A DNA stretch of 64,000 bases from Candidatus Uhrbacteria bacterium CG_4_9_14_3_um_filter_41_35 (GCA_002791275.1 PFWT01000009.1:146548-210547); one strand, 5' to 3'; shown: positions 2,248-51,866, numbered from the stretch's first letter. Made by a program: numbers and translations. The notes: generated by a model from the sequence alone, not told the origin.

Positions 2248-4074
2248 ATGTGCGGAATCGTTGGATTTATTGGTAAGGAACCGGCAGTTGGTCATCTACT
2301 TAGTGGGCTGACTATTTTAGAAAATAGAGGCTACGACTCAGCTGGAATTACAACTATAGACTCAAACGGCGAACTCGTAACCACAAAATTCGCTAGTGTT
2401 GGCAGTACAAGCGACGCAATTGAAGCACTTCGGTCTAAAAAAGATGTACACGGCTCACACCCTGTTGGAATCGCCCACACTCGCTGGGCTACGCATGGCG
2501 GAAAGACGGATGCAAACGCTCACCCGCACCACGATTATAAAGACCGGATCTCGCTAGTTCATAACGGGGTTATTGAAAACGCCAATAAACTCCGAGAACA
2601 GCTAAAATCAAAAGGTATTGCTTTTAAATCAGAAACCGATACCGAGGTAATCTCGCAGTTAATCGGTAGCTATTTAGACCACGGCACACCACTCATTGGT
2701 GCTATTAAGGGCGCACTGAGTGAGCTTGAGGGAACTTGGGGTTTGGTTATTATTAGTAAAGAGGCGCCAGATCAAATTATCGCAGCCAGAAACGGTAGTC
2801 CGATTGTGGTTGGAATTGGTCAGGGCCGAATGTTTGTGGCTTCAGAACCAGCGGCGTTTGGTCAATTTACAAAGGACTTTATCGCTCTTGATAATGGAGA
2901 GATCGCCATAATTAAAACAACTGGTCACTCACTCGACCTTTCCCGTGTTGAAAAAGCACCAGACGAAATCATTCACGATTCACCAGACCCATTTCCCCAC
3001 TGGACGATTCGCGAAATTACTGAGCAACCTGAAGCTATTTCTCGAGCCTTAAATTACGGCGGACGAATTAAAGATGATGCCAACGTAAAACTCGGCGGAC
3101 TGGATGTGAAGGCTGATTGGTTAATGTCGATTAAACATCTCGTTATTGCAGCTTGCGGAACCAGCTACCACTCTGCGCTCTATGGCGCTAGAGTAATGCG
3201 TTCACTTGGCGCTTTTGATACGATTCAGGTTTTTGACGCCGCGGAAATGAGCCGAGACAACTTTCCTAAAGCAGATGGTGGACTTTTGGTAATCTCACAG
3301 TCAGGAGAAACCAAAGACGTACACCGCGTGGTAGTTAATGCTGAAAAGTCTGGTATCCCTTGCTTTTCAATCGTTAACGCAGTTGGTTCATTAATTGCAA
3401 GACAGACTGAGTGCGGTGTTTATCTAAACGCTGGCCGAGAACACGCTGTGGCGTCTACCAAGGCTTTCGTAACTCAGGTGACAGTGCTTAGCCTGATCGC
3501 CAATTGGTTCGCTCAGAATCGAGATACGGAAGAACAGCAACGGAGACGACTTATTGAAAGCATTCACCGTCTACCAACCAGCGTTGGTATGTCGATCGGA
3601 GTTCGGGAGCAGTGTAAAGCGATCGCTGAGAAATTGATCGACGCCGAACACTGTTTTGTGCTCGGTAAAGGTTTTGCTGAACCAATCGCCCGTGAAGGCG
3701 CACTCAAAATTAAGGAAATTACCTATTTACACGCTGAAGGCTACCCAGGTGGCGCACTCAAGCACGGTCCATTTGCGCTTATCGAGGAAGGGACGCCAAT
3801 TATTCTAATGATCCTCGACGACTCACACGCTCACTTCATGCGCACCGCAGCCGAAGAGGTGCGTGCGCGAGGAGCATACACGATTGTTATTACCGATAAA
3901 AAAGAACTGGCAGAAGGCGTAGCTGATGACGTGATAGTTATTCCAAACGACGGTCCAATGACCGCCCTTCTCTCAGTTGTCCCAATGCAACTCATCGCTT
4001 ACGAGCTAGCAGTGCTCCGAGGCATTAACCCAGACAAACCAAGAAACCTAGCAAAAGCGGTTACAGTAGATTAA
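2248..4074 (+). CDS. glmS: glutamine--fructose-6-phosphate aminotransferase
   Basis: N-terminal MCGIVGFIG (Ntn Cys1), two SIS domains and full 608-aa length. Confidence 0.95.
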   Translation: MCGIVGFIGKEPAVGHLLSGLTILENRGYDSAGITTIDSNGELVTTKFASVGSTSDAIEALRSKKDVHGSHPVGIAHTRWATHGGKTDANAHPHHDYKDRISLVHNGVIENANKLREQLKSKGIAFKSETDTEVISQLIGSYLDHGTPLIGAIKGALSELEGTWGLVIISKEAPDQIIAARNGSPIVVGIGQGRMFVASEPAAFGQFTKDFIALDNGEIAIIKTTGHSLDLSRVEKAPDEIIHDSPDPFPHWTIREITEQPEAISRALNYGGRIKDDANVKLGGLDVKADWLMSIKHLVIAACGTSYHSALYGARVMRSLGAFDTIQVFDAAEMSRDNFPKADGGLLVISQSGETKDVHRVVVNAEKSGIPCFSIVNAVGSLIARQTECGVYLNAGREHAVASTKAFVTQVTVLSLIANWFAQNRDTEEQQRRRLIESIHRLPTSVGMSIGVREQCKAIAEKLIDAEHCFVLGKGFAEPIAREGALKIKEITYLHAEGYPGGALKHGPFALIEEGTPIILMILDDSHAHFMRTAAEEVRARGAYTIVITDKKELAEGVADDVIVIPNDGPMTALLSVVPMQLIAYELAVLRGINPDKPRNLAKAVTVD

Positions 4075-4133
4075 ATAGTGTTAAGAGTTTAGCGCAATAA
4101 GGGTGATCAATGACAAAAAGAAACCACAAACCC

Positions 4134-4454
4134 CGTCATTCTGAGGTGAACGTGGATCACACCGAAGAATCTAGTGATAAATTACTAAGTAAATGTCGGT
4201 TAAGCACAGAGCGAAGGAGATCCTTCAGCATGAATCAGCACCCGCTTCAGGATGACGGTATGAGTGAAATGCGGTTTATTTAAGGCGACAGGAAATATAA
4301 ATTACACAATCACACAAACCTCGTCATTCTGAGCCTAGCGTGAATCACGGCGAAGAATCTCAGTGTTGAATTACAGCGTAAACAAGTTTCTGTTTTGTAA
4401 AGAGCGAAGGAGATCCTTTAGCGTAATCTGGCGCTCGCTTCAGGATGACGGTAT
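4134..4454. repeat. intergenic palindromic repeat cluster 1 (A'-B'-A'-B', about 190-nt tandem period)
   Basis: The 38-nt unit cgtcattctgag..ccgaagaatct occurs twice and the 50-nt unit cgaaggagatcc..cttcaggatgacggtat occurs twice. Units are reverse-complement to those in clusters 2 and 3. Confidence 0.8.
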
Positions 4455-4502
4455 AGGTGTGGGTCGAAATAATACAGGTATATTTTAGATCATATTAAAA
4501 CA

Positions 4503-4536
4503 AATAGGAGACCGCAGGCGGTCTCCTATTTGTTTT
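4503..4536. terminator. bidirectional intrinsic terminator
   Basis: aaataggagaccgc..gcggtctcctattt long perfect stem flanked by T-rich runs on both strands. Confidence 0.65.
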
Positions 4537-4621
4537 AAACTCCAACCCTTATTCGCCCGAAAAGGGTGTGTATAAAATATCAGCCTGTATCTATAAGTTA
4601 AATAACTCAAAAACCCTCTCC

Positions 4622-5914
4622 TTATTCATTAAGCCATTTTGGCTCCTGCCGTACCAAAACCTCTGGTGCGCTTAGCGGTTCTGCCATAATATCCTTCACC
4701 ACTTTTTCCATTCGAGCTGACTGTGAGCCCTTTACAAAAACAATGTCACCTTGTTGAACAATGCGATCTAAGTAACGCCCAGCTTCTTCGCTAGTCCCAA
4801 ACCACTCAATACTTTCAGCTCCCATTCCTGCTTCTTTGGCAGAATCTACAGCGCTATGCATAACTTCACCAACCGCCACAAAAATGTCGGCGCTTGTTGC
4901 CACTTGTAAACCGATCATTCTGTGTTCATCGTCTGAATATTGACCGAGTTCTGCCATAGCTCCTAAAACCGCAATCCGACGGTCAACTTCTTCACCTGGC
5001 CTAAACATTTTTAAAATTTTCAGACCGTTTTGCATTGAAGTTGGCGCCGCGTTGTACGAATCATCGATAATAAGTGAACCTTTTATTCCTGGAATTGGGT
5101 TGAGTCGCCCAGGTACCGCGCCGTAATGTTTATTCAGCTCCTTAACCGCGTTCATAACACCAATACCCAAATAGTCAGCTACGGCAATCGCAGCTGCACA
5201 GGCCATTGCTGGCGCGTAGCCGAGTTTATTTTTGAGTTTAAGTTGAGCAATTACTGTACCGTTATGCTCGATGTAAGCGCTAGTGTGCGCAAACACTTCA
5301 CCAGGCTCAAAACTCTCATCCTCTCTAGTTGAGATTGTAATATCCTGAAGCTGGTAATCACTGGCAGTAACTCCGTAAGTCAAAACAGACGCTGTAGTTT
5401 TCTGAGCCATTGCCGATACTCGTTTATCGTCCACGTTCAAAACCGCTAAATTGTCCGAAGCTAAAAAGCCAACAATTGAAGCTTTTTCAGCTGCGATTTC
5501 TTCAATGTTTGTGAAGTATTCTGCGTGAACACTCGAGACTCCAGTCACCACCGCAATACTTGGTTTGGCAATTCCACACAACTTTCCAATATCCCCTGGA
5601 TGATCTGCGCCGTATTCAAGCAAAAGCACGTCTGGCAGTCTCTTCACTTTTCGCGCCCGATTCAGTAACCGAAGCCAGCCCCAAATTGATTTACCGGGAC
5701 TGTTTTCACCTAAAATTGAAAGCGGTACGCCAATTTCATTATTATAATTTTTAACAGTTGATCTTAGGTTAACATAAGGCTCAAGCGCTACCTTAATCGC
5801 TTCTTTTGTTGAAGTTTTACCAACCGAACCGGTTACCGCGATAATAATTGGTTTATGTTTATTCACCAGTTTTCTAACCCTGTTCTGAAGTTTTTTTATT
5901 AAAAATTGTTTCAT
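4622..5914 (-). CDS. murF: UDP-N-acetylmuramoyl-tripeptide--D-alanyl-D-alanine ligase (short form)
   Basis: IIAVTGSVGKTSTKE P-loop and NYNNEIGVPLSIL, the MurF-type GNxNNxIGVPL motif. At 430 aa it lacks the N-terminal domain. Confidence 0.75.
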   Translation of the reverse strand: MKQFLIKKLQNRVRKLVNKHKPIIIAVTGSVGKTSTKEAIKVALEPYVNLRSTVKNYNNEIGVPLSILGENSPGKSIWGWLRLLNRARKVKRLPDVLLLEYGADHPGDIGKLCGIAKPSIAVVTGVSSVHAEYFTNIEEIAAEKASIVGFLASDNLAVLNVDDKRVSAMAQKTTASVLTYGVTASDYQLQDITISTREDESFEPGEVFAHTSAYIEHNGTVIAQLKLKNKLGYAPAMACAAAIAVADYLGIGVMNAVKELNKHYGAVPGRLNPIPGIKGSLIIDDSYNAAPTSMQNGLKILKMFRPGEEVDRRIAVLGAMAELGQYSDDEHRMIGLQVATSADIFVAVGEVMHSAVDSAKEAGMGAESIEWFGTSEEAGRYLDRIVQQGDIVFVKGSQSARMEKVVKDIMAEPLSAPEVLVRQEPKWLNE

Positions 5915-16192: not shown

Positions 16193-17191
16193 CTACAACT
16201 CACGACTAAGTAATAATTCTGCTCCATCCCATAGTCGAGCGTCGTTGTTAACCTTTAAAAAATACCACCACTCTATACCCCACAAGTATACCTCATCTGC
16301 GCCAGTTCTTTTAGCGAAGACTAGATTCTCAGCTAAATTCTCAAGAGTAAACTCAGCGTAAGCTTTGTCTAAATTATTAGTTATTGGGTATATATAACTA
16401 CCTACACCCCAAGGCTCAGCCTGCAGTTCGGAAATTATAACCTTATCTACAAAAATATTAGCAACCCTGCGTTGAATATTGTACATAAGCGCCGTGTACG
16501 GAAAAATTATTTCACCGAAATTTTTGTCATAAACTTTTCGGTACAAACTCACCCCTAAAACGTCAGCCGGCAGAGCTCGCCAGACCCAAAGTGACTGTTC
16601 ACCACTGACCGTGAGTTGAATCGGCTTATCGTCCATTGCTCTAACTAGATTTATTTCGTTTTGAATCAAGCCAGGGTTTAGTTGTAAACATTTGCCGAAC
16701 GGAAAAAATGATTCATTTTCTATTTGCCATCTTTCAACATTTTCAGAATCCCTGTAACGATTAACAGTAGCCTCAATAAACTCCATTATTTCGTAATCAC
16801 GCTCTTGCTCCTGCATTTTTTCTGCCCAGTCGGGAATAAAACATTCTGGCCAACGTGGAACTTTTTGACCAATAACTAAGGTAAGTTTTAAGTCATTTGC
16901 CCTTGCAATTTCCATTATTTTGTCCATTTCTGTGTAATCGTAAACATTATTCACTCGTTCGATTTCCGACCAGTAAATTGGTACTCGATATTTTTTTATA
17001 CCAAGATCTGAAATTGAAGCCTGAAGTACCTCAATCGGATCAAGACCCAATTCTTTCGAGTAAGTAGTTGAAAGCGTTGCGCCTATTTCTAAATTTGTAT
17101 TATTATTTTTAAAAACCAAAACACTGATTGTTGTAAACATTAAAACAATCAAGGCAAATATTAGAGTAACTCTACCCCATTTTCTGTTCAT
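16193..17191 (-). CDS. membrane-anchored glycoside hydrolase (GH-A clan TIM barrel, GH5-like)
   Basis: N-terminal TM helix, IYWSEIE and WQIENE (NE catalytic-acid-type motif). The family assignment is tentative. Confidence 0.45.
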   Translation of the reverse strand: MNRKWGRVTLIFALIVLMFTTISVLVFKNNNTNLEIGATLSTTYSKELGLDPIEVLQASISDLGIKKYRVPIYWSEIERVNNVYDYTEMDKIMEIARANDLKLTLVIGQKVPRWPECFIPDWAEKMQEQERDYEIMEFIEATVNRYRDSENVERWQIENESFFPFGKCLQLNPGLIQNEINLVRAMDDKPIQLTVSGEQSLWVWRALPADVLGVSLYRKVYDKNFGEIIFPYTALMYNIQRRVANIFVDKVIISELQAEPWGVGSYIYPITNNLDKAYAEFTLENLAENLVFAKRTGADEVYLWGIEWWYFLKVNNDARLWDGAELLLSREL

Positions 17192-17239
17192 AAGCTGAGT
17201 GATACAGACTCAGGCCGCTATTTTGACCCTGAACCAGAC

Positions 17240-18811
17240 TTAAATCTCGTCCTTTTTTTCGCGCACAAAAGAAATCCAACTCTCTACAAAGCGAATAGCA
17301 ACTTTAAGCGGTGCTTCGATGATGAAATCGAAAAAATAAATAAAGATATTGATTTTTGAAACATTGTGCGAAAGCCAGCGCCCTGCGATCACAAGAGGCA
17401 ACATAAAGAAATCAAAAAGTGTGCCGATTAGTCCGCTACGGGCGTCTGAAAGCACAACTTCTTTGGTTGACATTCTAATTCTGATACCAAAGAAAGTAAC
17501 CAGCGAAATAAAGAAGAGGAAGAGAGCAACAGAAAGCCAGGTGAAATTAAAGCCAACCAAAACGAAGCCGATCAGTCCGTAGGTAAAGAGGTACATTAAA
17601 GTGTAGGTGAAGCCAAAAAGCTTTGACCAAGCTCCGAAGCTACTTGCCTTAACCTTCACATTCAAGAGGTCGTGATCAGCACTCACAGAAAGTGCCCGCA
17701 CAGCGCTCTGGTAGTCGGTGGTATTTTTTCGTTCCTTAATACCAATTGTCAAACCAATAACAGCCAAGAATAATGGGTGGAATAGGATATTTACAAGCAA
17801 CGGAGTTGCGCTAATTTCGCCATACATTACTAAATCATATGGTACCTCGAGCGCCAAAGCTAACAACATTTTAGTGAGGAACAAAAATAGCACAGCTCTA
17901 AGCACTGTTCTTTGTAAACGTTTTCTAAATACTGTTGTTCGTTTTTTTAACTGCCTAGCAACAGCGCGATCGAGTAAATCTGGGTCGTCGAGTAGCGCAG
18001 GAAATTGCTTTGGTTCTTGCTCAATCGTATCTCTAATTACTCTAAACACGCCAGCTTTTCGTCGTAGCAAGAGTGATAACTTTCCAGTAACCGGATGCGA
18101 AAGCTGTCGTTCGATCAAGGCAATAACCGACTTGAGGTTTTTTGTAATATCTTCTATTTGTTCACGATTTGATGCGCCTGGCCAATCCGGATAGTAAAGC
18201 GTCAGAACTCTAAAACGCAAAGTTGCCTGATTTGACCTGAGTAAAATTTGATGAATCGCAATATACAGCAATAAATCCTTATCCTCACTTGATAAAACAA
18301 TCCGCGGATCCCACTCAATTCTGGACCGCATTTCTTCGTACATATAACTCACCAGAGCTTCATCTCCAACTGGTGGTGTAATTGCGTATTCAACTTCTGT
18401 TGAGAGAACATCGATGACCCAGTTAAAGGCATCCTCGCGTTTTTCGCCAAAGTCTTCGGTGGCTCGAAGTAGTGGTTCGTACTTCATGAAAATCGGAATG
18501 AGCTCATCTATAAGACGCGCCGGCACCTCTTTATTTGGGAGATACCTAGCCCAAATCAGCTCGCGAAGTAAGTCGCCAGCCATATTTTCAATTGGTACAT
18601 CTGAACCAATATACCGCTTAATAATTCGCAAAATTGCGTTACGCCGCAATAAGTGCTCCTCCTGATAATCGATCGAGGTTCTGAGCTTTTCGTAAATTGT
18701 AGCAGCTGTGCTAGCCGGTGCGCTCACTTCAATCATTTCCTCCCCCGCACTTTCTCCAAAACCAACCGGCCTGGCCAGTTGCGCTGTAAGACGAGTTAAT
18801 TTTTCAGACAT
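17240..18811 (-). CDS. hypothetical membrane protein (large N-terminal soluble domain, C-terminal multi-TM region)
   Basis: 523-aa ORF with a hydrophobic C-terminal third and no motif I recognise. Confidence 0.5.
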   Translation of the reverse strand: MSEKLTRLTAQLARPVGFGESAGEEMIEVSAPASTAATIYEKLRTSIDYQEEHLLRRNAILRIIKRYIGSDVPIENMAGDLLRELIWARYLPNKEVPARLIDELIPIFMKYEPLLRATEDFGEKREDAFNWVIDVLSTEVEYAITPPVGDEALVSYMYEEMRSRIEWDPRIVLSSEDKDLLLYIAIHQILLRSNQATLRFRVLTLYYPDWPGASNREQIEDITKNLKSVIALIERQLSHPVTGKLSLLLRRKAGVFRVIRDTIEQEPKQFPALLDDPDLLDRAVARQLKKRTTVFRKRLQRTVLRAVLFLFLTKMLLALALEVPYDLVMYGEISATPLLVNILFHPLFLAVIGLTIGIKERKNTTDYQSAVRALSVSADHDLLNVKVKASSFGAWSKLFGFTYTLMYLFTYGLIGFVLVGFNFTWLSVALFLFFISLVTFFGIRIRMSTKEVVLSDARSGLIGTLFDFFMLPLVIAGRWLSHNVSKINIFIYFFDFIIEAPLKVAIRFVESWISFVREKKDEI

Positions 18812-18836
18812 ATAGGCGTGAGGTCAGAAATTATTT

Positions 18837-19583
18837 TTAAAAGAAAGTTCGAGGACAAGAATCTTTAACTAGATCAAAAGCCTCTTCCGCCGTATCCACT
18901 ACCTGAAAAATATCCATATCTTCTCGATTAATGGTATCGAACTCTGCGTAAAGAACATCCTCAATCCACTTAATTAAACCACCCCAATATTCTTTACCAA
19001 CTAAAACCACCGGGACTTGAATTGCTTTTTTTGTTTGAATAAGTGTGAGAATTTCAAACAGCTCATCTTGGGTACCAAAACCACCCGGGAAGTAAATATA
19101 GGCTTGAGCCGAGGCTGCCAAAATCACCTTTCGGGTGAAGAAGTAGTAAAAAGCTCGTGATTTGTTCACAAATGGGTTTACTCGCTGTTCGTTTGGTAAT
19201 TGAATATTAAGACCAACCGAAACTCCGCCAGCTTCCGCAGCACCTTTATTTGCCGCCTCCATAATACCAGGACCACCGCCAGTTACTACCGTAAAGCCAT
19301 CTTGTGCCAATAAACGACCCATCTTCTCTGCTTCCTGATACCATCTGTTACTTGCCGGCAGTCGAGCCGATCCCATGATGGTCACCTCTTTGTCGAGGTG
19401 AGAGAGGAACTGAAAGCCTTCAACGAATTCAGACATTATTCTAAAAATCCGCCAAGTAATTTCAGACATTCTTGGCTCTGCGCCAGGTATTTTGAGATCC
19501 TTTTCTTCTTCCGTAAAAGGAATCCGGCAGATATTTACCTTTTCTATTTTTTTATTATTTGATTTTCCATTCATAATACTCAT
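18837..19583 (-). CDS. LOG-family (TIGR00730) nucleotide 5'-monophosphate nucleosidase
   Basis: VVTGGGPGIMEA, PGGFGTQDELFE (PGGxGTxxE). The start is uncertain because of the N-terminal extension. Confidence 0.7.
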   Translation of the reverse strand: MSIMNGKSNNKKIEKVNICRIPFTEEEKDLKIPGAEPRMSEITWRIFRIMSEFVEGFQFLSHLDKEVTIMGSARLPASNRWYQEAEKMGRLLAQDGFTVVTGGGPGIMEAANKGAAEAGGVSVGLNIQLPNEQRVNPFVNKSRAFYYFFTRKVILAASAQAYIYFPGGFGTQDELFEILTLIQTKKAIQVPVVLVGKEYWGGLIKWIEDVLYAEFDTINREDMDIFQVVDTAEEAFDLVKDSCPRTFF

Positions 19584-19636
19584 ACAAGTATTATATCACG
19601 AAACTTTGAAGCTAAGACAACTCAATAAGTTGATAA

Positions 19637-19668
19637 CAAAAAAGAGCCTTTCGGCTCTTTTAATTTAA
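19637..19668 (-). terminator. intrinsic terminator after major pilin gene
   Basis: agagcc-tttc-ggctct hairpin with A-run and T-run flanks. Confidence 0.6.
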
Positions 19669-19671
19669 TTA

Positions 19672-20190
19672 TTATCTAACAGCACTAATTGCTGTTGTAT
19701 TCTCTGACTCACAAGCGCCAACTGTAAGTGTGCCGTTTGCGTTCTTTGTAAGTGTGTAACCGGTTGTAACCGCATCCCAAGTCGCAAGCCCGTTTGGACT
19801 TACAGGTACAGCTCCAAGGTAACCCTGCGTTACGAGTGTAGTTAGATCAACACCACTGGTAGCACTAGTAACATTCACATCACAGTTTGTGTTGTTAACA
19901 TTGCAAGTTGTAGTACAGGTACCGATCATATAAACGTTACCAGCGATTAGCGCAGTAATAGCTGCGTCGTAGTCGCCACCATTGTCGACCTGATCGATTT
20001 TAGCTGCGTGCAAAACCTGAGTTACATCTGAGCTTCGTCGTGCGTCTCGTGCATCTCTGAATCGAGTTGCAGGGTCAAGAGCAACGAATACAATACCCGC
20101 CAAAATCGCGATAATCACAATCACGATTAAGAGCTCGAGCAGTGTAAAACCTTGTTCTGAATCTTTTAAGTTTTTAATCTTATTAATCAT
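19672..20190 (-). CDS. type IV pilin (candidate major pilin)
   Basis: Leader followed by the G|FTLLELLIVIVIIAILAG class III signal (E at +5). Cys pairs in the C-terminal domain and a strong terminator downstream. The ORF track extends the N-terminus to 20253. Confidence 0.7.
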   Translation of the reverse strand: MINKIKNLKDSEQGFTLLELLIVIVIIAILAGIVFVALDPATRFRDARDARRSSDVTQVLHAAKIDQVDNGGDYDAAITALIAGNVYMIGTCTTTCNVNNTNCDVNVTSATSGVDLTTLVTQGYLGAVPVSPNGLATWDAVTTGYTLTKNANGTLTVGACESENTTAISAVR

Positions 20191-20255
20191 ATTTTTAATT
20201 ATATTTAAATCTATTATATCAAACTTGACGTATATATCTAACAACCTGTGCACAA

Positions 20256-21242
20256 TTAAATAAAATTGTGATCTTTGCGGTATTTGTGCTTTTTCACCGA
20301 TCTTAAAGCAGCACCGATTGCCGAGCCGTAAATTTGCAATTCTTTTTCGCTTATATTAGGGATACTAATAACCGAACCTATGCGAATTACCTTACTATTC
20401 TTAATACTTTTATCACACAGTTCCGCAACATTTGGTTGCCCCCCTTCTACACCCGCAAATATAATAAATGGAATCGAGTAACCTGAATCACTAAAAAATT
20501 TATGTGCTTCCTTAATAGCTCCGCAAATTTTTAGAAGAACTTCTTTAGTAATCAGTTTAGTCTTACCACCACTTTTGTCAGCAAGCTTTCGGATTGCAAT
20601 AGATCTAGAAAAAACCGTAGCCCCGGCAATATCGTAAACTGTAATATTCGTCCACCTATGGCCAACATCCACAATCATTATCATCTGCGTATCTTCGGTA
20701 ATTGAAAATTCGTTTAGAACAAAATGGGCATAAAGTCTATCTACCGCCTTATTATTCGACTCAATAGCCACTAGCGGAAATTGCTCACTGGCAAATACTG
20801 TCTGAAGTGAATTCAAAATATCTTTCTCTACAGCCAGAACAGTATTCCTCACCCCTTCGCTTACCTTCGCTCCATCTTCAAAAGCAATAAATGCGTCCTT
20901 AAAAGGCATTGGAATATCCTCTTGTCCGCCTTCGATCATTTTAGCTTTTTTCTCCTCCTTTAACAGTTTTTCAGAAGACATTATAAAACTTGTTGAAAAA
21001 ACTCTTGATTCTGGGACTAAAATCGTAGTGTCTGCAGTTATATCTTGAATGCCGGACTTTACTAAAAGTTTCTTGATCTGTTCCTTGAGTTCCTTTGGTT
21101 TTTCAATTTTATCGTCAACAATGTAGCCTGGCGACAAGACAAGCTCATAAAGACCAACAGGTATTCCACTGTGGTTTACGTAGGCAATTCTAATATGGTG
21201 ATCCGAAACGTCAATTCCGATTCCTGATGAAAGTAATGGCAT
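20256..21242 (-). CDS. pilM: type IV pilus assembly protein PilM-like (actin/FtsA-like ATPase fold)
   Basis: GIGIDVSDHHIRIAYV N-terminus, a C-terminal IYGSAIGAALR and its position within the pilus operon. Confidence 0.55.
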   Translation of the reverse strand: MPLLSSGIGIDVSDHHIRIAYVNHSGIPVGLYELVLSPGYIVDDKIEKPKELKEQIKKLLVKSGIQDITADTTILVPESRVFSTSFIMSSEKLLKEEKKAKMIEGGQEDIPMPFKDAFIAFEDGAKVSEGVRNTVLAVEKDILNSLQTVFASEQFPLVAIESNNKAVDRLYAHFVLNEFSITEDTQMIMIVDVGHRWTNITVYDIAGATVFSRSIAIRKLADKSGGKTKLITKEVLLKICGAIKEAHKFFSDSGYSIPFIIFAGVEGGQPNVAELCDKSIKNSKVIRIGSVISIPNISEKELQIYGSAIGAALRSVKKHKYRKDHNFI

Positions 21243-21243
21243 A

Positions 21244-21714
21244 TTAAATTTCTTCCCAATTTGTAATTAAAACATTAATTGCATTTCCAAAATTGTTATA
21301 AACCAGAGCTGTGTTGACAACTAGATTTCTTGTTATACCCGCAACTGTTACAGCAACCGTAATAAGTCTTGTGCTTCCCCCACCAGTTACAGTAACCGTA
21401 CACACACCATTTCCGATAGTTGTAATCGTTCCACCAGTATAACCAATATTGTCCTTCAGTCTATAAATTGCCTCATCAACACAGGCTTCACCGATTTGAA
21501 TTGCCTGATGCGCCTGATCAGATTCTAGATTTAGCGAAAGTTCGTTTACACTAAATTTAGCAACAGCTAATCCAAGTGATAATGTCATTGCTAAAATTAC
21601 AACCACAACAAGTAGCGCAGCAACTCCGTGCTCATCTTTTTGGATAATCTTAAATTTATTTTTCAGGCTTTTCATCTGTTTAATTATAGAATTTTTCCTA
21701 GCGCACCACAACAC
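21244..21714 (-). CDS. PilX_N-domain minor pilin-like protein
   Basis: Hydrophobic N-segment GVAALLVVVVILAMTLSLGLAV followed by AHQAIQIGEACVDEAIYRL. An internal Met at 21675 is an alternative start. Confidence 0.45.
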   Translation of the reverse strand: MLWCARKNSIIKQMKSLKNKFKIIQKDEHGVAALLVVVVILAMTLSLGLAVAKFSVNELSLNLESDQAHQAIQIGEACVDEAIYRLKDNIGYTGGTITTIGNGVCTVTVTGGGSTRLITVAVTVAGITRNLVVNTALVYNNFGNAINVLITNWEEI

Positions 21715-22240
21715 TTGTTTGCATAGAGGTTGAGGTATTTATTAATACTCCTGATTTATCGCGCCACTCCAGTGTGAGATCTATTTTAATATTTGTTGTT
21801 CTGCCCGGAACACTTAGATCCGTGAAGACTAGACTGGTGACATTAACTAGGTCCGAACTTATGTTCATCGGCGCGCCAGCTCCCTGCTGAATGCGAACTA
21901 CACCGCCCACAACATCAAAAACTGTTGGGTCCAAACTCCCGGTATTATTCACGAGCGAAAGAACGCCGGGATTTACGCCAAAACTTGAAGTTGTGAAATT
22001 AACATCGTTTGCCGACTTAATTTCGCGCGCAATTTTTTCCATTATGAACCGACCATTTTGACTAACTTCGTGCATAGTTCTCGCCTTTTGACCGCTTTGG
22101 ACAACGCTAACAGTGAAGCCAATCATACTAGTAAAAAAGACGGAAATAATCGCAAGATATATAATCAATTCCACTAAAGTATTACCTTTTGTATTCGATC
22201 TTATCTTTTTTAGACCAGAACTTATAGCAAGAACATTCAT
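21698..22240 (-). CDS. type IV minor pilin (prepilin N-terminal domain)
   Basis: KG|NTLVELIIYLAIISVFF prepilin-type signal with a Glu at the conserved +5 position. 180 aa. Confidence 0.55.
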   Translation of the reverse strand: MNVLAISSGLKKIRSNTKGNTLVELIIYLAIISVFFTSMIGFTVSVVQSGQKARTMHEVSQNGRFIMEKIAREIKSANDVNFTTSSFGVNPGVLSLVNNTGSLDPTVFDVVGGVVRIQQGAGAPMNISSDLVNVTSLVFTDLSVPGRTTNIKIDLTLEWRDKSGVLINTSTSMQTSVVVR

Positions 22241-22241
22241 A

Positions 22242-25200
22242 TTATTTATAAGTTACGGTGATGTCATTAAATAGCGGTGGAGTAAGCGCACCTGTTGATG
22301 TAATAATCACCCGGTACTGGAAGTAGCGACCAGTTTGACCAGCCAAACTCACACCATCTGCGGTTGTGTAATCCGGTGAAAAAACTGACCAAGTACCATC
22401 AATAACCGGCGAATTTCCACTCCGCACCGCTACGGTAATTTCTGAATTAGCCGGCAAAGTTTCACTCCACGAGAGTGTGTCCCAAACATTTGAAGCAACG
22501 TCGCTGTCAAAAATTATTGATGTGTAAGTCCCGAGTCCTCCCACGGAACCAGCACCACCACCGATAATTTGCTCAAGATGCATAAAGAGTCCAGCATCAC
22601 CTACAATCCAACCATTACCCGAACTTGTCATTGAGATGTCGTTCAAATTAGTGGTAACCGGTGAAGTAAAGAGCGCCCAAGAGATGCCCTTGTACTGAAT
22701 TAAGGCTCCGGCATCCCCAACTGCCCAGCCGTCATCGAAAGCTGTTAAATTGATCGCATTAAGATTTGCAACTGTTGGTGAAGTATCCGTTGTCCAAGTT
22801 GTCCCGTTATAGATGAGGATCGTACCAGTTGCACCAACCGCCCAACCATCGGTGGCCGAAACCATATAGATATCGTTCAGTTGATTGCCAGTTGGCGATG
22901 TTACAGTGCTCCAGTTTGAACCATTGTAGTGAATAATGGTACCGCCTGCCCCCACTGCCCAAATATCGCCAGGACCAACCGCATAAACAGCCTGTAGGTT
23001 TTGTATTGTTGGTGAAGTAGTCAATACCCAATTTACACCGTTAAAATGTAAAATTATACCGCCGTTACCCACTGCCCAAGCATCCGCCGTATCTATTACA
23101 TCAACTGCGGTTAGATTGTTTACAGTTGGTGAAGACATTGTGGTCCAAACCCCCGTATCATTTTTTACAATCGTACCATTATCACCTACGGCAAAACCTG
23201 TTGTTTCATTAAAGAAATCAACCGCGTTCACGTTAACTGTTACTGGCGACGCGTCCACATCCCAAGCGGTACCAGCGTAACTATTGAGCGACCCTAGGTT
23301 GGCCACTGAGAAACCGACCGTATCTGAAACTAAATGAATACCATTGATATTTTCAGTTGTTGGGTTGTTGTAGCTAATTTTTATTGAGTCTAGGCTTGGC
23401 GTAATGCTTTGATTCAAGGTACTTAAAGTAACTTCATACTGCAGATACTGACCATTTAGCGAAGCAATTACTTCACCGTTTGGATTGGTATACGCACCAG
23501 CAAACGCTGACCAGCTACCGTCTGGTACTGGTGTTGCGCCAGTCCGAGTGTTAATCACAACATCCACTGCCCCCTGACCAATATCTTCAACCCAAGAAAT
23601 ATAATCCCAGTGAGTGTTTGGATCTAGACTGTTGATTATCGGAGAAGTGTAGGTACCGGTTAAGAAGTAAAGTCCTGTGTAGTGCACAAAGGTTGAACTC
23701 AGACCTCCGGCCCAGATATCGCTGCTATCCGCGATCGAAACTGAGTTAAGATCTGTCCCCGTTGGTGAACTCGCTTGTGTCCAAGTTAACCCGTCCCACT
23801 TTAAAATAACTCCATTGTCTCCCACAATCCAGCCATCAGTCGCCGAAACCATTTCGACATCCTGAAGCTCACTATTCGTTGGCGACGCCACATTTGACCA
23901 ACTTGTTCCGTCGTAGTGCATAATCGTGCCACTGCGACCAACTACCCAACCGTCTGTTGCAGAAATGAAATTGATAGCATTTAAGTTTTGACTCGTTGGT
24001 GTGCTCATTGAAGACCAGTTTGAACCGTTCCAATGCAGAATTCGACCACTTCGACCTGCAATATAACCATCTGTAGCCGAGATCATACTAACATCATTTA
24101 AACTACTACTGGTGCCTGAGTTAACTAAGGACCAAGAAATACCGTCATACGAAAGGATTTTTCCATTTTTTCCAACAGCCACTCCAAACGAGGAGCTGAC
24201 CATATCAACATCATAAAGTGTTTGTGAGGTTGGTGAAGTTGCAATTGTCCAGACCGAACCATTGTTTACTAAAATCTGACCCTCTTCACCCACCGCCCAA
24301 CCTTCGGTTGCTGATGCAAAATCAACTCCGTACATTTGTTTTTGTGTTGGAGAATTGATTTGCGACCAGCCATTATTTTCGTATTTAAACATTGCACCGT
24401 TTCGTCCCACAGCCCAACCAGTTGAACTATTAATCATACAAATATCTTCCACCGTATCGTTTCCAAGTTCAGCTGTGTAGTCACTCCAGTATGTTGGAAT
24501 AAAGTAGGTTGTTGCTGTCCAAACTGTACCATCATAATTTGCCACCATTCCATTTGCGCCAACCGCAAAGCCGGAAGAAGTGTTTTGCATTTTTACTCCA
24601 ATAAAATCCTCAGTCGTAAGCGTGGTAACTGTGTACCAATTACTTCCGTTATAGTGAAGTATCGTCCCTGAGTCACCAACAGCCCAAACATCATTTGTAG
24701 CAATAGCATATACGCCACGTAAATCATCATGAGTTGGTGTGTTTACACTCGACCACGAAGACCCGTTCCAGTGCCGAGCCGTGCCATTATCCCCAACAGC
24801 CCAACCGTCATTCGCCGAAATAAAGTACACATCTCTAAGTTTCTGTGAGGTGCCGCTTGAAACGTTTGACCAACTATTACCGTTCCAATGAATTATTTGA
24901 CCACTCTCACCAACAGCCCAACCATCTGTTGTTGAAAGCATATAAACTGCTGCGAAGTTTCTAGATGTTGGTGAGGAGATTTTTGACCAAGAATTGCCAT
25001 TGTACCGTAAAATTGTTCCATCCTCGCCAACTGCCATACCAAAACTTGAACTTACCATTGAAACACTTGCCAGATCTTCTGAGGTTGGCGAAGAAACCGT
25101 GCTCCAGGTTCCATTATAATTCAAAATCGTACCCGAATCACCAACCGCAAAGCCGTTATTTGAATCTATGAAATCAAGAGAATTTAAGTCACGAGTCGTT

Positions 25201-26885
25201 GGAGAAGATAAATCGATCCAATTTGTGCCGTTAAAATTTGCTATTGTACCAGAATCTCCAACACCCCAACCGCTTGTGTTACCAAGTATTTCAACACTGT
25301 TAAGATCATTTGAACCAGAGACGCCACTTGCACCTGTGCCGTCAAACAAACCAATCACCGGTATACTCGATCCCCCAACGAACCAGCCATTATTTTCGTC
25401 TAGCAGATAAACACTCTTTAGATCCTCACCAGTAACTGATGCCTGTGCTGTCCAGCTACTACCATTCCAGTGGAAAATATCCCCGTTATCACCAACCGCA
25501 ACACCAAAGTTAGCGCTCACCATTGATAAACCTCTTATATCAGGTGAACCTGAAATTTGCTGGCTAACCCACGAATTACCATTGTAAAAAATCATGGTTC
25601 CCGATCGACCTCCTGCCCAGACATGCGAGGCATCAACCGCATAAACCGTGTAAAGTCGTTGATTAATTGGATTTGATACCGAAATCCATAGAGAGCCATT
25701 CCAATTATACGTGTGCCCATTTCGATCAACGGCCCAAGCATTAGTTTCTGAAATTACTGAAACATCGTATAAATCAGAATTGGTACCAGAAGTAACCGCT
25801 GTCCAAACAGCTCCATTCCAGTGTTGAATTTCACCACCAGTTGCGACAATCCAGCCATCAGTCGGGCTTGAAAAATCTATCGCATTCAAATTTTTATTAC
25901 TTGCCGAGGGTATAGTACTCCAGCTAAGACCATTCCAGTGAAGTATTAGGCCGGAATCTCCAACCAACCAAACATCATTCACCGATTTAACATAAACTCC
26001 ATTTAAATCTGCAGTTACTCCACTTGCCACCTGAAACCAATTTGCACCATCCCACTTCAAAATTGAACCAGTATTTCCAACTGCATAGCCAAGATCTGCG
26101 GAACTCATGTGAATGTCATTTAACAAATCCGAGTTAGCAGCTGGCGGAGAAAATACTCCCCATTGTGGGGTATTGTTGAGTTCAATCGATGCTGTAGCTC
26201 CGGTTCTTGCTCGAACTGTGTCCGTGAAGGTTCCTGGATCAAAATCAAGATCGGTCGTATGAATTACCGACAGTCCTCCTCCAGGAATCCACCTGTCAAC
26301 GGCAAAGGATGTGTCTCCTGAAATTGTGAGTGATGCTGAATCGCCAGTGCCATTTATTACAATGTCCGTTGCCGTACCAGCGCTAAAATCAGTACTCGAA
26401 GTTTCGTGCCAATCAAAAACGTTCCAGTCGGTTAAATAAGTAACCGCCTGCACACTTCGCAGAGCGTTTCTGGCAGTCCAACTCACAACTGAAGTTACTT
26501 TTTTTGTACGCGGATCAATCTGCCCGCCGGTTGCCACGATATTATTATTCACATCCCGCTCAACACTTGAAATTGTAACCACACGAGTGTAAATATCAAC
26601 AATGTCATTTACACCACTAAACGCCCAGCTACCACCCGTGTTTGCCACGCCATGCGCACCGTCAATTAAGTTCAGCCAAGATTCATCGCGGATACTCCGA
26701 GCCGCTTCAAGTCCCTCCTGCGCTATAACCGTTGCCCGCACCTCTTCGTTACTGACGCCAAGCGAAACTAAACTATCAAGGAAAATTGTGCTCACAACCA
26801 AGGTTATGATACTAAAAATCGACATGGCAATAACTACTTCTGCCAAACTTTGACCTTTTTTATTTTTGAAAATTGAAGTAAACAT
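22242..26885 (-). CDS. giant prepilin-fused multi-beta-propeller protein (candidate pilus-associated adhesin)
   Basis: N-terminal KG|QSLAEVVIAMSIF prepilin signal. At least 26 tandem blades, each about 42 aa, with the motif t-SPT-x-DL-x-V-x(5)-GWAVGdsGtILhYNGsnWS, plus two copies of a roughly 90-aa non-repeat module. Translationally coupled to its flanking pilin genes. Confidence 0.85.
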   Translation of the reverse strand: MFTSIFKNKKGQSLAEVVIAMSIFSIITLVVSTIFLDSLVSLGVSNEEVRATVIAQEGLEAARSIRDESWLNLIDGAHGVANTGGSWAFSGVNDIVDIYTRVVTISSVERDVNNNIVATGGQIDPRTKKVTSVVSWTARNALRSVQAVTYLTDWNVFDWHETSSTDFSAGTATDIVINGTGDSASLTISGDTSFAVDRWIPGGGLSVIHTTDLDFDPGTFTDTVRARTGATASIELNNTPQWGVFSPPAANSDLLNDIHMSSADLGYAVGNTGSILKWDGANWFQVASGVTADLNGVYVKSVNDVWLVGDSGLILHWNGLSWSTIPSASNKNLNAIDFSSPTDGWIVATGGEIQHWNGAVWTAVTSGTNSDLYDVSVISETNAWAVDRNGHTYNWNGSLWISVSNPINQRLYTVYAVDASHVWAGGRSGTMIFYNGNSWVSQQISGSPDIRGLSMVSANFGVAVGDNGDIFHWNGSSWTAQASVTGEDLKSVYLLDENNGWFVGGSSIPVIGLFDGTGASGVSGSNDLNSVEILGNTSGWGVGDSGTIANFNGTNWIDLSSPTTRDLNSLDFIDSNNGFAVGDSGTILNYNGTWSTVSSPTSEDLASVSMVSSSFGMAVGEDGTILRYNGNSWSKISSPTSRNFAAVYMLSTTDGWAVGESGQIIHWNGNSWSNVSSGTSQKLRDVYFISANDGWAVGDNGTARHWNGSSWSSVNTPTHDDLRGVYAIATNDVWAVGDSGTILHYNGSNWYTVTTLTTEDFIGVKMQNTSSGFAVGANGMVANYDGTVWTATTYFIPTYWSDYTAELGNDTVEDICMINSSTGWAVGRNGAMFKYENNGWSQINSPTQKQMYGVDFASATEGWAVGEEGQILVNNGSVWTIATSPTSQTLYDVDMVSSSFGVAVGKNGKILSYDGISWSLVNSGTSSSLNDVSMISATDGYIAGRSGRILHWNGSNWSSMSTPTSQNLNAINFISATDGWVVGRSGTIMHYDGTSWSNVASPTNSELQDVEMVSATDGWIVGDNGVILKWDGLTWTQASSPTGTDLNSVSIADSSDIWAGGLSSTFVHYTGLYFLTGTYTSPIINSLDPNTHWDYISWVEDIGQGAVDVVINTRTGATPVPDGSWSAFAGAYTNPNGEVIASLNGQYLQYEVTLSTLNQSITPSLDSIKISYNNPTTENINGIHLVSDTVGFSVANLGSLNSYAGTAWDVDASPVTVNVNAVDFFNETTGFAVGDNGTIVKNDTGVWTTMSSPTVNNLTAVDVIDTADAWAVGNGGIILHFNGVNWVLTTSPTIQNLQAVYAVGPGDIWAVGAGGTIIHYNGSNWSTVTSPTGNQLNDIYMVSATDGWAVGATGTILIYNGTTWTTDTSPTVANLNAINLTAFDDGWAVGDAGALIQYKGISWALFTSPVTTNLNDISMTSSGNGWIVGDAGLFMHLEQIIGGGAGSVGGLGTYTSIIFDSDVASNVWDTLSWSETLPANSEITVAVRSGNSPVIDGTWSVFSPDYTTADGVSLAGQTGRYFQYRVIITSTGALTPPLFNDITVTYK

Positions 26886-27349
26886 TAGTTTCGGGTTATA
26901 GCTCCAGCTGGATTGACTAAGATTGTTTTTTTCTCCGCTGTTTCGTTTAATTCGACCGTAATCGTGGCCGGGGTCGAAGTGTTTCCGTGCGAATTATTAA
27001 ACAGCACATCTGCGCCCCCACCCTGAATTGTAATCTGAGACAAAGTTGTAGAATTTGGCAGGGTTGTTGTAACATTATCCGGAGCTCCTGGAATATAGGT
27101 AGTGCCTCGGTACAAAGTAAAATCATTAGCTGTAAAGTGCACACCCCAAACATCATTTTGACGACCATTCATAGTGTGCCACTCGGCGCGCCTCAGAGTA
27201 TCAACAACATCTGTTGAAACGTTTACTAAATCATTTCTGTTAACCGAAGAACTCATTACCAAGGCGCCAATCAAAACTATTATCGATGATAACGCGGTTA
27301 CTATCAGCGTTTCAAGTAAAGTAAAACCATGGTGATTTATGTTTTTCAT
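26885..27349 (-). CDS. type IV pseudopilin (GspH/FimT-like)
   Basis: HG|FTLLETLIVTALSSIIVLIG prepilin signal. Confidence 0.6.
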   Translation of the reverse strand: MKNINHHGFTLLETLIVTALSSIIVLIGALVMSSSVNRNDLVNVSTDVVDTLRRAEWHTMNGRQNDVWGVHFTANDFTLYRGTTYIPGAPDNVTTTLPNSTTLSQITIQGGGADVLFNNSHGNTSTPATITVELNETAEKKTILVNPAGAITRN

Positions 27350-27357
27350 AAGGATGA

Positions 27358-28512
27358 TTAAACACCCGACAAAATTGAATAAATTGGTGTCAGAATAGAC
27401 ATCGCCATAATCGCTACCACACCTCCAATAAATAGAAGCATAATCGGTTCCAAGATTGACGATAGGTTTTTTGACATCACCATCACCCGTTCTTCATAAT
27501 AATCAGCCAAAAACTCGAGTGTTGAACCTAAACTTGCAGATCTTTCACCAACCGCAACCATTCGCTGAATCATTTTTGGATATAGATCAGGGTACCGTTC
27601 AATAATTGCCGAAAATTCGCTACCGCCCGCTACCTGTTTCATCATATTCTTCACTGATTTTGCGTAAACGTAGTTTGGCATCACTCGCGAAGTAATATCG
27701 AGCGCCTCTTCGATCGCGGTTCCACTTTGCAGTAAGGTTCCAACAGTCCTACAAAAGCGAGCGCGATTGATAAGGTTTGTAAACACACCAACCACCGGGA
27801 TTGCTAAAAGTACTCTGTCAGTAATTGGACGCACCGCCTTTCGCCTTGAAAACCAAAGGAAAAACACGGTACCTCCGATTGAAGCTGGTACCACAATCGC
27901 GCCATAGGCCACGAAGAAATTTGAAACCCAGATCAAAATTCGGGTAGTAATCGGCAGTTCCACGTTCAAAGACTCGAAAATCTGGCTAACCTGTGGCAAC
28001 ACGAAAATTGCAATTCCAAAACCGAGCACAACTGCCATACTAAGTACCACGGAAGGATAAATCATAGCTGACTGCACATTTCGCTTTAAGCTAAGATCGC
28101 TCTCCATTTGTTTTGCTAAACGTTCAAGGTTTGCGTCGAGAGTCCCTGAGTTTTCTCCCACCTCCACAGCACTAATAAACGAAGCATCAAAAGTTTTCGA
28201 CTCAAATTTTAAAGCATCAGCAAAAGCTGAACCGCCCTGAACTCGACGATTTACCCGTTTTAACACCTTCTTGAGGGTCCCCACCGACTGCTCTGTGATT
28301 ACCTCAAGCGCTTCAGGCACCGAAAGACCAGCATTTAGCATAACCGCAAAGTGCTTCGAAACCATCGCTACATCGGTGGTTTTTACCTTACCTAAACTAA
28401 TTTCCGTCTTGTACCAAGGAAGTTTTCCTTCTTTTGCAACGACCCTGTTAAGGCTATTTTTTGTCGGACTATTATTCACTTTTTTTGTAATTGTTTTTGC
28501 CATATTATTCAA
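27358..28512 (-). CDS. pilC: type IV pilus platform protein PilC (GspF family)
   Basis: Two GspF-type repeats with 3 TM segments. Confidence 0.8.
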   Translation of the reverse strand: MNNMAKTITKKVNNSPTKNSLNRVVAKEGKLPWYKTEISLGKVKTTDVAMVSKHFAVMLNAGLSVPEALEVITEQSVGTLKKVLKRVNRRVQGGSAFADALKFESKTFDASFISAVEVGENSGTLDANLERLAKQMESDLSLKRNVQSAMIYPSVVLSMAVVLGFGIAIFVLPQVSQIFESLNVELPITTRILIWVSNFFVAYGAIVVPASIGGTVFFLWFSRRKAVRPITDRVLLAIPVVGVFTNLINRARFCRTVGTLLQSGTAIEEALDITSRVMPNYVYAKSVKNMMKQVAGGSEFSAIIERYPDLYPKMIQRMVAVGERSASLGSTLEFLADYYEERVMVMSKNLSSILEPIMLLFIGGVVAIMAMSILTPIYSILSGV

Positions 28513-29497: not shown

Positions 29498-29498
29498 A

Positions 29499-31187: not shown

Positions 31188-31208
31188 ATGATTTTTTTAT
31201 ATTATAAC

Positions 31209-46095: not shown

Positions 46096-46149
46096 TTTTT
46101 TGCTTATTGTAGCTTATAGTCTAGCTTCTACTTAGTAATCAGGCAATGG

Positions 46150-46469
46150 GATTCTTCGGTGTGGTCCACGTTAACCTCAGAATGACGGGGTTTGTAATTT
46201 TCTCCGAGGTGCCAAGCGCCAGGCTCAGAATGATGGTTTAGTTTTTGACGATACGGTTTCGTTATTCTGACGCTTATCATTCATACTCCACACTCATACC
46301 GTCATCCTGAAGCGAGCGCCAGGTTACGCTGAAGGATCTCCTTCGTTTAGCCGAACCAACATTTGCTTAGTGATCCAGTAATAAGATTCTTCGCCGTGGT
46401 TCACGCCAGGCTCAGAATGACAGGGCGATTAGATTCTTCGGTGTGATCCACGTTCACCTCAAAATGACC
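46150..46469. repeat. intergenic palindromic repeat cluster 2 (between uvrA and uvrC)
   Basis: A units at 46150-46187, 46385-46422 and 46432-46469 (plus a partial copy around 46207-46236). B unit at 46298-46345. Confidence 0.8.
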
Positions 46470-46580
46470 GTTTAGTAGTTATTGTTTAATTTAGTATTTT
46501 CCACTACCTCTAGCTCCGAAGCTTAACATCGTAATATCTTCAGTTTCAAATAACCTAAGGCAATACCCAAAACCTAAACA

Positions 46581-49100: not shown

Positions 49101-49168
49101 ATTTTTATTTTCAATTTGATTTGCTATAATTCTAAAGTTCCTTCTCCTTTACAAGCTACGAGGTTAGA

Positions 49169-49657: not shown

Positions 49658-49665
49658 ACCTTACT

Positions 49666-49695
49666 GAGCCCCGCCCCTGCGGGTCTTATTTTTTA
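49666..49695. terminator. bidirectional intrinsic terminator
   Basis: cccgc-ccct-gcggg hairpin followed by a T-run. Sits between convergent genes. Confidence 0.6.
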
Positions 49696-51737: not shown

Positions 51738-51866
51738 AACACAAACGCCTGCATCCTTAAAGTTATAGGGTGGCCTATAACGCTTTGGGATCCAGGTTTT
51801 AGATTTAATTGTACGCAAAGTATGCCAAAAAAAAGTCTTTTGGTCAAGTTGTTGCTGGTCCTTATT

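Follow-up and report, generated by a model that had tools for sequence, protein, structure and literature searches.

The repeats most similar to those described here are the CGTC-tagged repetitive extragenic palindromic (REP) sequences and the target sites of the nuclease Ssn. CGTC REPs (Di Nocera et al., 2013, BMC Genomics 14:522; PMC3733652) consist of an unpaired CGTC or TGTC tag, a stem whose first pairs are A,T, and a 3-nt tail; they are intergenic, occur mainly as head-to-head dimers, often heterodimers, with conserved spacers, and the families CGTC-1 to CGTC-4 include Neisseria dRS3 and Rickettsia RPE-4 and RPE-6. No transposase has been linked to them, the genes for REP-associated tyrosine transposases (RAYTs) being flanked solely by GTAG REPs in that survey; its authors noted that bulged members may have escaped their search, and proposed that the CGTC families are perhaps nearing extinction after loss of a dedicated enzyme. 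SsnA (Chenal et al., 2025, Nat Commun 16:2388; PMC11893778), a single-domain GIY-YIG protein of 94 amino acids, binds and cuts the Neisseria NTS (CGTCATTCCCGCG...CGGGAATCYRG) as single-stranded DNA (ssDNA) only and on the forward strand only, and does not bind RNA. For cutting, SsnA depends on the three nucleotides that precede the palindrome on its 5' side, and for binding, above all on the C that directly follows on the 3' side. An ssn gene typically has its own repeats on both sides, and 81% of genomes with more than 200 Ssn-related motifs (SRMs) have an Ssn. Here we describe a family of palindromic repeats in a 64,000-nt stretch of DNA (PFWT01000009.1:146548-210547; hereafter the window) from Candidatus Uhrbacteria bacterium CG_4_9_14_3_um_filter_41_35, a metagenome-assembled genome of the Patescibacteria, or candidate phyla radiation (CPR). 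We consider it probable that these repeats are a lineage-specific family of CGTC-tagged REP-type hairpins, belonging to the superfamily of the Neisseria NTS/dRS3 and the SRMs, and that the folded single strand would be a site for an Ssn nuclease.

The window contains about 15 units in three intergenic clusters. Written with the GTCAT end first, the A units have the consensus (C/T)GTC-AT-TCT-GA-[19 nt]-GA-AGA-AT-C and the B units CGTC-AT-CCT-GA-[20 nt]-GA-AGG-AT-C, and all units follow the common formula (C/T)GTC-AT-YCT-GA-[inner]-GA-AGR-AT-C, the tag being CGTC or TGTC in all five B units and in most A units. One hairpin design underlies both types, A with an ATTCT stem and B with an ATCCT stem, as inverted paralogues. 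A preliminary description of this DNA had distinguished two unit types, a distinction that we retain with B now read as an inverted paralogue of A, and it had also noted that the 3' end of A and the 5' end of B are nearly complementary, which is real and follows from that paralogy. With at most one mismatch allowed, GTCATTCTGAG has nine matches in the window against 0.75 expected; GCTTCAGGATGACGG has seven against 0.03 and CGAAGGAGATCCTTCAGC five against 0.05, and for each of the three none of 100 shuffles attained the observed count. At least six metagenome assemblies, independent of one another, contain the same sequence with 99.99-100% identity, and the repeats are therefore no assembly artefact, a point that the preliminary description had marked for checking.

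At locus 1, unit A1 (4134-4171, + strand; CGTC-AT-TCT-GA-GGTGAACGTGGATCACACC-GA-AGA-AT-C, tag-first on that strand) and unit B1 (4219-4257, - strand; CGTC-AT-CCT-GA-AGC...GCT-GA-AGG-AT-C, tag-first on that strand) form a head-to-head dimer with the tags outside (4134-4257), and A2 (4322-4359, + strand; subtype 2, inner sequence GCCTAGCGTGAATCACGGC) and B2 (4412-4450, - strand) form a second one (4322-4450). In the alignment, the spacer of the first dimer (4172-4218) is conserved and contains a lineage-specific palindrome, CGAAGGAGATCCTTC, adjoining B; that of the second (4360-4411) represents another spacer variant and has a small AAACA..TGTTT hairpin. Direct reading bore out the coordinates and sequences first given for 4134-4454, together with the claimed duplication of a block of about 190 nt, which has a period of 188/193 nt and an identity of 75-83% and is arranged head to tail. 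Two further loci, in the opposite orientation, had also been claimed and are indeed present. Locus 2 (46150-46468), between uvrA and uvrC, comprises A(-) 46150-46186, a degenerate A(-) at about 46199-46234, B(+) 46301-46338, A(-) 46385-46421 and A(-) 46432-46468. Locus 3 (55660-56089), situated between a tRNA, with its terminator, and a MarR-like gene, comprises A(-) 55660-55696, a degenerate A(-) at about 55707-55743, B(+) 55788-55825, A(-) 55878-55914, B(+) 55967-56004 and A(-) 56053-56089. A two-dimer block of 335 nt is common to loci 1 and 3 (55770-56090 in the latter), 78.8% identical and in reverse.

To follow the family within its lineage, metagenomes were scanned with a lineage-specific 18-mer, which returned 90 stretches; about 30 of these, of low GC content, carry the family, and together with the window they yield 149 units (95 A, 54 B) in 293 kb. 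Copies diverge by 13-25%, and the variation lies in the centres: the tag, the A-T/T-A start of the stem, the GA/GA and the C of the tail are nearly invariant over the 149 copies, the base before GTC being C in 142 and T in six. Tails at the 3' end read CTC, CTA, CTT or CCC. A and B always stand in mutually inverted orientation. They form 45 head-to-head pairs with a gap of 46-53 nt, the tags outside, and 38 tail-to-tail pairs with a gap of 44-116 nt, the tags inside, while tandem A-A pairs are spaced by exactly 10 nt (n = 23). Because of the head-to-head heterodimer layout, each DNA strand of a dimer bears one forward-oriented unit. The spacer within these dimers is conserved, in two variants. 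All 35 lineage clusters are intergenic, lying between convergent, tandem or divergent genes.

With the CGTC REPs the units share the unpaired tag at one end (CGTC or TGTC; CCTC is also allowed in that class), a stem that begins A-T, T-A, a short unpaired tail, the head-to-head (hetero)dimers with tags outside (published spacers measure 20-100 nt, against 46-53 nt here), the intergenic setting (mostly between tandem or convergent genes in the published families) and, over the about 81 kb of window and flanks covered here, the lack of a linked transposase. They differ from them in the stem, which in the published REPs is by criterion continuous over 8-9 bp with a loop of 4-5 nt, whereas the window units have a 5-bp stem, a tandem G·A mismatch and an inner hairpin of 19-20 nt in a total of 37-38 nt. 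The tail is CTC here and CCA in the published consensus, a difference at the second position; clusters are the rule here and rare in the published families; and the Patescibacteria are absent from the five phyla for which CGTC REPs were reported. In common with the NTS and SRMs, essentially all units have GTC directly 5' and C directly 3' of the palindrome, and orientation is strand-specific, with head-to-head pairs around genes, but the GA/GA interruption and the obligate A/B heterodimers are absent from the account of those motifs (PMC11893778). The bacterial interspersed mosaic elements (BIMEs; REP Y/Z) of E. coli and the REPINs of Pseudomonas likewise have two unit types alternating in orientation, tandem clusters, positions in 3' untranslated regions (UTRs) between convergent genes, and dimers that fold into one long hairpin; they differ in their GTAG tag and in the class of their enzyme, an HUH/Y1 RAYT, and the arms of REPINs are near-identical whereas A and B are about 65% alike. 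The family is thus a new and structurally distinct variant (GA-interrupted, extended, with obligate A/B heterodimers) of a known class of element. The preliminary description of dispersed, intergenic, REP-like palindromic elements is supported, and the CGTC-REP/Ssn-related class, which it had not considered, fits them. No earlier report of CGTC REPs or SRMs in Patescibacteria was found in the literature searched, where a lookup of the raw sequence strings returned primer matches only.

The design also occurs outside this lineage. When 185,579 species-representative genomes were scanned with both arms of B, a query that fixes the outer module, at least 111 stretches were returned, and among the matches listed are Acidobacteriota, Omnitrophota, Patescibacteria, Gammaproteobacteria, Calditrichota, Chloroflexota, Bacteroidota and other phyla. 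The sequence of the inner stem varies from match to match and is nearly always complementary. With a detector that leaves the sequence of the stem free (GTC-AT-xyz-GA ... GA-rc(xyz)-AT), 217 units were recovered from 0.88 Mb, 97 of them not imposed by the query, and where GA/GA interrupts the stem in those 217, no Watson-Crick dinucleotide in its place gave more than three matches. The base before GTC is mostly T in these units (163, with C in 45), and the first base of the tail is C in at least 211 of the 217. Many matches are followed by an inverted ATTCT-type partner, so that the A/B head-to-head pair recurs over phyla. GA-type (C/T)GTC hairpins were also seen on more than 120 viral or proviral contigs of IMG/VR (L221-L340); an Ssn hidden Markov model (HMM) had no match in 1.1 Mb of these hairpin-bearing viral contigs.

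Loci selected for their hairpins held two small GIY-YIG genes, one in Methylococcaceae (L023; PF01541, E = 1.3e-16), which has GA-type units on both sides, and one in Omnitrophota (L010). The clade to which they belong consists of single-domain GIY-YIG proteins of 87-101 amino acids that are 65-75% identical across phyla. Its consensus is 50.6% identical to the gonococcal SsnA orthologue over 89% coverage (E = 4e-22), and that orthologue, of 94 amino acids, has the Y6, Y17 and E64 published for SsnA and is embedded in canonical NTS repeats. By the thresholds that Chenal et al. used for homology (E < 1e-10, coverage above 75%; PMC11893778), the clade therefore belongs to the Ssn family. All nine clade genes examined have GA-interrupted (C/T)GTC hairpins on their flanks, no more than about 60 nt away; besides the two hairpin-selected loci, these comprise seven chosen protein-first, regardless of hairpins, namely three from Patescibacteria (L210-L212), one each from a Planktothrix plasmid (L214) and a Spirosoma plasmid (L215), one from Chloroflexota (L341) and one from Tissierellaceae (L342). 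On both sides of the Planktothrix gene stand head-to-head heterodimers in which an ATTCT-GA unit is paired with an inverted ATCCT-GA unit, as in the window. More distant homologues, in Azospirillum and Neisseria, have the canonical uninterrupted hairpin instead.

Several features of these genes deserve mention in their own right. In one Patescibacteria genome (GCA_004297215.1, about 2960-3000) there are two ssn paralogues (L210 and L211), and in both of them the ATG is preceded, at a distance of 4 nt, by the end of a hairpin unit whose right arm, GAAGGA, occupies the Shine-Dalgarno position; folding could therefore occlude the ribosome-binding site, which makes autoregulation possible. In the Planktothrix agardhii plasmid (NZ_LR882964.1, 18050-19916), ssn stands between a type IIL MmeI restriction-modification gene and the DISARM gene drmA, a setting that is a defence island; PADLOC, which has no model for Ssn, returned nothing meaningful, and NCBIfam gave nothing above its cut-off. 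Identity within the clade is flat, at 65-75%, over Patescibacteria, Thermodesulfovibrio, Chloroflexota, Firmicutes, Cyanobacteria and Zixibacteria, and for many members the contig is shorter than 2 kb, which suggests strong constraint and/or frequent horizontal transfer, together with repeat-induced assembly breaks. The gonococcal ssnA orthologue (L213, 1483-1770) is unannotated, and its 94-residue frame starts at ATT and not at an in-frame ATG. Two complete Neisseria gonorrhoeae chromosomes (2.17 Mb; NZ_CP119142.1 and NZ_CP119140.1) are filed as plasmids in PLSDB.

The predicted fold of a unit has a lower stem of 5 bp, above which the G·A/G·A mismatches make a 2x2 interruption; then come 3 bp, a bulge of 4 nt and another 3 bp, which close a loop of 3 nt. 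Over 50 distinct A units of the lineage, 96.4% of the cells that should pair do so, against 89.9% in shuffles, none of 500 of which attained the observed value, and slid controls on the same units pair in only 28-53%. The pair 5-37 is A-U in 48 of the 50 and 6-36 is U-A in all of them; in B units, too, the outer stem reads AT...AT. The inner stem is kept paired by compensatory changes. The preliminary description had placed these in a central mini-hairpin, and here the claim divides: the GTG/CAC core varies on one side only, through G·T wobbles, and the double changes are found in the two pairs just outside it (CG in 24 copies and GC in 22; CG in 25 and UA in 22). Since these double changes split the two A subtypes, they represent few independent events. 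Folded as ssDNA, the head-to-head dimer is predicted to form a single long hairpin closed by a duplex of both tagged ends (z about -2), which supports the earlier suggestion that A and B could pair. The 3' arm of B runs into a perfect palindrome, GAAGGA-TC-TCCTTC, at 4212-4229, 46328-46345, 55815-55832 and 55994-56011, and can therefore pair either with the 5' arm of B or with the adjacent tail. The small alternative hairpin that results is at times preferred by RNAfold and in DNA folding; it could be a switch, or the vestige of a collapsed partner unit.

We suggest the following mode of action. A unit would fold into its hairpin whenever replication, DNA uptake or transcription leaves the DNA single-stranded; a small single-domain GIY-YIG Ssn nuclease would recognise the folded unit and cut a few nucleotides 5' of the tag; and such cuts, with repair or recombination, may spread the units and modulate the recombination of incoming ssDNA. 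That an Ssn acts on the copies in the Uhrbacteria host is inferred from homology and from the genomic association in other genomes. The window also contains type IV pilus genes (about 16200-31200: T2SSE/PilB, T2SSF/PilC, PilM and N_methyl pilins), and in a CPR host this makes uptake of ssDNA plausible (PMC12455944). Adjoining the pilus gene set is a gene (22242-26885, - strand) for a protein of 1547 amino acids without a Pfam match. A more far-reaching idea, which we put forward tentatively and would not be surprised to see fail, is that the GA-interrupted (C/T)GTC hairpin, typically as an ATTCT/ATCCT heterodimer, is the cognate ssDNA site of a distinct and strongly conserved Ssn subclade ranging over Patescibacteria, Cyanobacteria, Chloroflexota, Firmicutes, Omnitrophota and Proteobacteria; the G·A mismatches might then be a recognition determinant that escapes published SRM searches, and nuclease and repeats together might mark 'self' DNA and gate the recombination of imported ssDNA in CPR bacteria, which are ultra-small and bear pili.

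A number of observations weigh against assigning the window repeats to an Ssn. No ssn gene was found by regular expression, tblastn or the family HMM in the window, its flanks (about 17 kb) and related low-GC loci (about 290 kb), the last of which were chosen for carrying B units, the sequence searched amounting to a minority of the host genome; a stand-alone GIY-YIG gene is likewise absent from the precomputed Pfam calls over about 81 kb (window and flanks). None of the 120 proteins most closely related to a CPR Ssn is named as from Uhrbacteria; an Ssn homologue does exist in a WWE3 CPR bacterium of the same sample. For the clade associated with GA-type hairpins, binding and cleavage are themselves attributed by homology. 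The published SRM pattern, HGTCWYN(0-2)YYVSBRHN(0-5)WNVSBRGN(0-2)RNCYNB (PMC11893778), has no match in the window, and in the cross-phylum loci it has 16, against 217 GA-type hairpins; it misses the units owing to their longer centre and to the G·A mismatch within the stem. Isolated units of this lineage make weak hairpins (z of -0.5 to -1.6 as RNA and about -0.7 as DNA; an acidobacterial unit of the same design has a z of about -5), and their inner stems are degenerate relative to those of other phyla, so that they may be decaying relics. On the tag-first strand G·T exceeds A·C only mildly (20:10 and 34:22, each p about 0.1). Finally, the tag-first strand of A is the sense strand at seven of the eight unique loci between tandem genes, a bias that an ssDNA-nuclease model alone does not predict and that hints at a transcription-linked constraint.

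The cluster at locus 1 follows glmS (GATase_6/7 and SIS domains; 2248-4074, + strand), and a murF-like Mur ligase gene (4622-5914, - strand) is convergent with it; the product of the latter has 100% identity to a protein of Candidatus Uhrbacteria bacterium CG_4_9_14_3_um_filter_41_35. Between the cluster and the murF-like gene, an inverted repeat that is perfect over 21 bp and has 2 nt at its centre (4495-4538; core GGAGACCGC-AG-GCGGTCTCC) has T-rich tails on both strands and reads as a bidirectional intrinsic terminator common to both genes; a terminator scanner missed it because its nominal loop is 2 nt. As the block lies between the glmS stop codon at 4074 and this terminator, it is part of the glmS 3' UTR and co-transcribed, in keeping with the placement first given to it in the glmS 3' region. 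The 471-nt glmS 3' region that includes the block has an RNA fold z of -7.5, and we regard its transcription as a highly structured 3' UTR as probably a secondary consequence of where the repeats lie. The nearest relatives are only about 64% identical. In one of them (L208, 63% identical), glmS is only 20 nt from its neighbour, with no units in the gap; in a Uhrbacteria relative that is 62% identical (contig of P0006, JGI 3300072015), the murF-glmS gap is 353 nt, holds an open reading frame (ORF) of 73 codons without a Pfam match, and may be another repeat block. In the window itself, a gene call for a 57-residue ORF without a Pfam match (4110-4283, corresponding to L001 11863-12036) spans A1 and B1; it is almost certainly spurious, created by the repeat, and hairpins of this sort probably often give rise to false small proteins when metagenomes are annotated.

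Among other explanations for the repeats, the one to be taken most seriously, unlikely as we think it, is that they are orphan relics of the CGTC/SRM superfamily whose nuclease was lost or never present, with copies that drift, spread by local duplication or recombination, and have no current sequence-specific function. The absence of ssn from about 370 kb of lineage sequence, the weak folding of single units with the degenerate inner stem of B, and the divergence among copies all suit it; so do the 188/193-nt tandem duplication and the copying of the 335-nt block, which point to segmental copying and not to unit-wise transposition, and it agrees with the extinction proposed by Di Nocera et al. 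for CGTC families (PMC3733652). Drift does not readily account, however, for a tag, stem start, GA/GA and tail C held near-invariant in 149 copies while the centres vary, for a head-to-head spacing kept at 46-53 nt, or for compensatory changes that preserve the inner stem; moreover, an Ssn is present in most genomes rich in SRMs (PMC11893778), and the sequence searched for one here is the smaller part of the genome. A role in RNA is more doubtful still, and we hold it to be improbable. As stem-loops in 3' UTRs or between genes, the units would then shield mRNA from exonucleases or adjust the expression of flanking genes, as is known for some E. coli REPs, or they would form a small RNA family. 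The co-transcription of locus 1 with glmS, the stable fold of its 471-nt region, the sense bias at tandem genes, the G·U pairs present in the stems, and the tandem G·A, a motif stable in RNA, all speak for such a role. Yet clusters also lie between divergent genes and, at locus 3, downstream of a terminator, with no tie to 3' UTRs; with one unit per orientation in each dimer, half of the units are antisense in any transcript; the units themselves lack both promoter and terminator; and single units fold no better as RNA than shuffled sequence. In Rfam, only the tRNA of the window reached the gathering threshold, nothing relevant appeared over 4050-4560 even at E = 10, and 16 cross-phylum loci gave no match. 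The unpaired tag and the tail C are features of protein recognition, and the one protein partner characterised for the wider family binds ssDNA and not RNA (PMC11893778), so that the 'small structured RNA family' offered in the preliminary description is left without support.

Mobilisation by a transposase is less probable again. On the layout alone, with palindromic units, inverted dimers and tandem clusters in intergenic DNA, the repeats could pass for a classical REP/BIME/REPIN family moved by a RAYT, that is, an IS200/IS605-like Y1 transposase, the partner that the preliminary description had proposed to look for. That partner fits GTAG-tagged REPs and not the CGTC/TGTC tags found here, RAYT genes being never flanked by CGTC REPs (PMC3733652); no PF01797 or other transposase of any class is among the precomputed Pfam calls of the 81 kb, and the proteins adjoining the hairpin class are GIY-YIG and not HUH/Y1, which leaves this explanation with very little likelihood. 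Least credible of all, to the point that we give it almost none, is a MITE (miniature inverted-repeat transposable element), derived by deletion from a DDE-type insertion sequence and moved in trans through its terminal inverted repeats. A dimer of about 125 nt with imperfect terminal inverted repeats (CCGTCATYCTGA) that folds into a long hairpin does resemble one, but each such repeat is a complete hairpin unit that is also found alone and in tandem; there are no target-site duplications at 33 distinct dimers, where conservation of the flanks fades gradually without a sharp end; and neither an insertion sequence with matching ends nor a DDE transposase was seen in the 81 kb. The earlier reading as a MITE thus falls on target-site duplications and defined ends. 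A CRISPR array was rejected, as it had been at the outset, in view of the alternating orientation, the two unit types, the conserved 'spacers' and the absence of cas genes from the 81 kb. A hammerhead ribozyme, suggested by CUGA...GAA, and a kink-turn were also considered and dropped: on reading the sequence, the CUGANGA/GAAA core of the former and the 3-nt bulge of the latter are absent.

Assignment to the CGTC-tagged, Ssn-related superfamily mostly explains the repeat finding for the window itself, and it has some wider consequences. CGTC REPs were long seen as orphans without an enzyme, and Ssn, in 2025, supplied a partner for uninterrupted hairpins only, mainly in Proteobacteria. The GA-interrupted version occupies the intergenic DNA of a streamlined CPR genome at about one cluster per 20 kb, and hairpins of this class bracket Ssn-clade genes in at least seven phylum-level groups, which widens the known range of Ssn/repeat pairs. 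These pairs offer candidate substrates for new ssDNA-nuclease specificities, with biotechnological value, and they raise an idea about the control of DNA uptake in CPR bacteria; the repeats also explain a common origin of contig breaks and spurious short ORFs in assembled metagenomes. As to their genomic neighbours, uvrB, uvrA and uvrC are clustered on the - strand of the window (44761-51818), around locus 2, and in another Patescibacterium (L212, 933-3288) an ssn gene with hairpins lies directly downstream of uvrB; Di Nocera et al. (PMC3733652) noted that REPs occur within or close to repair genes, uvr among them.

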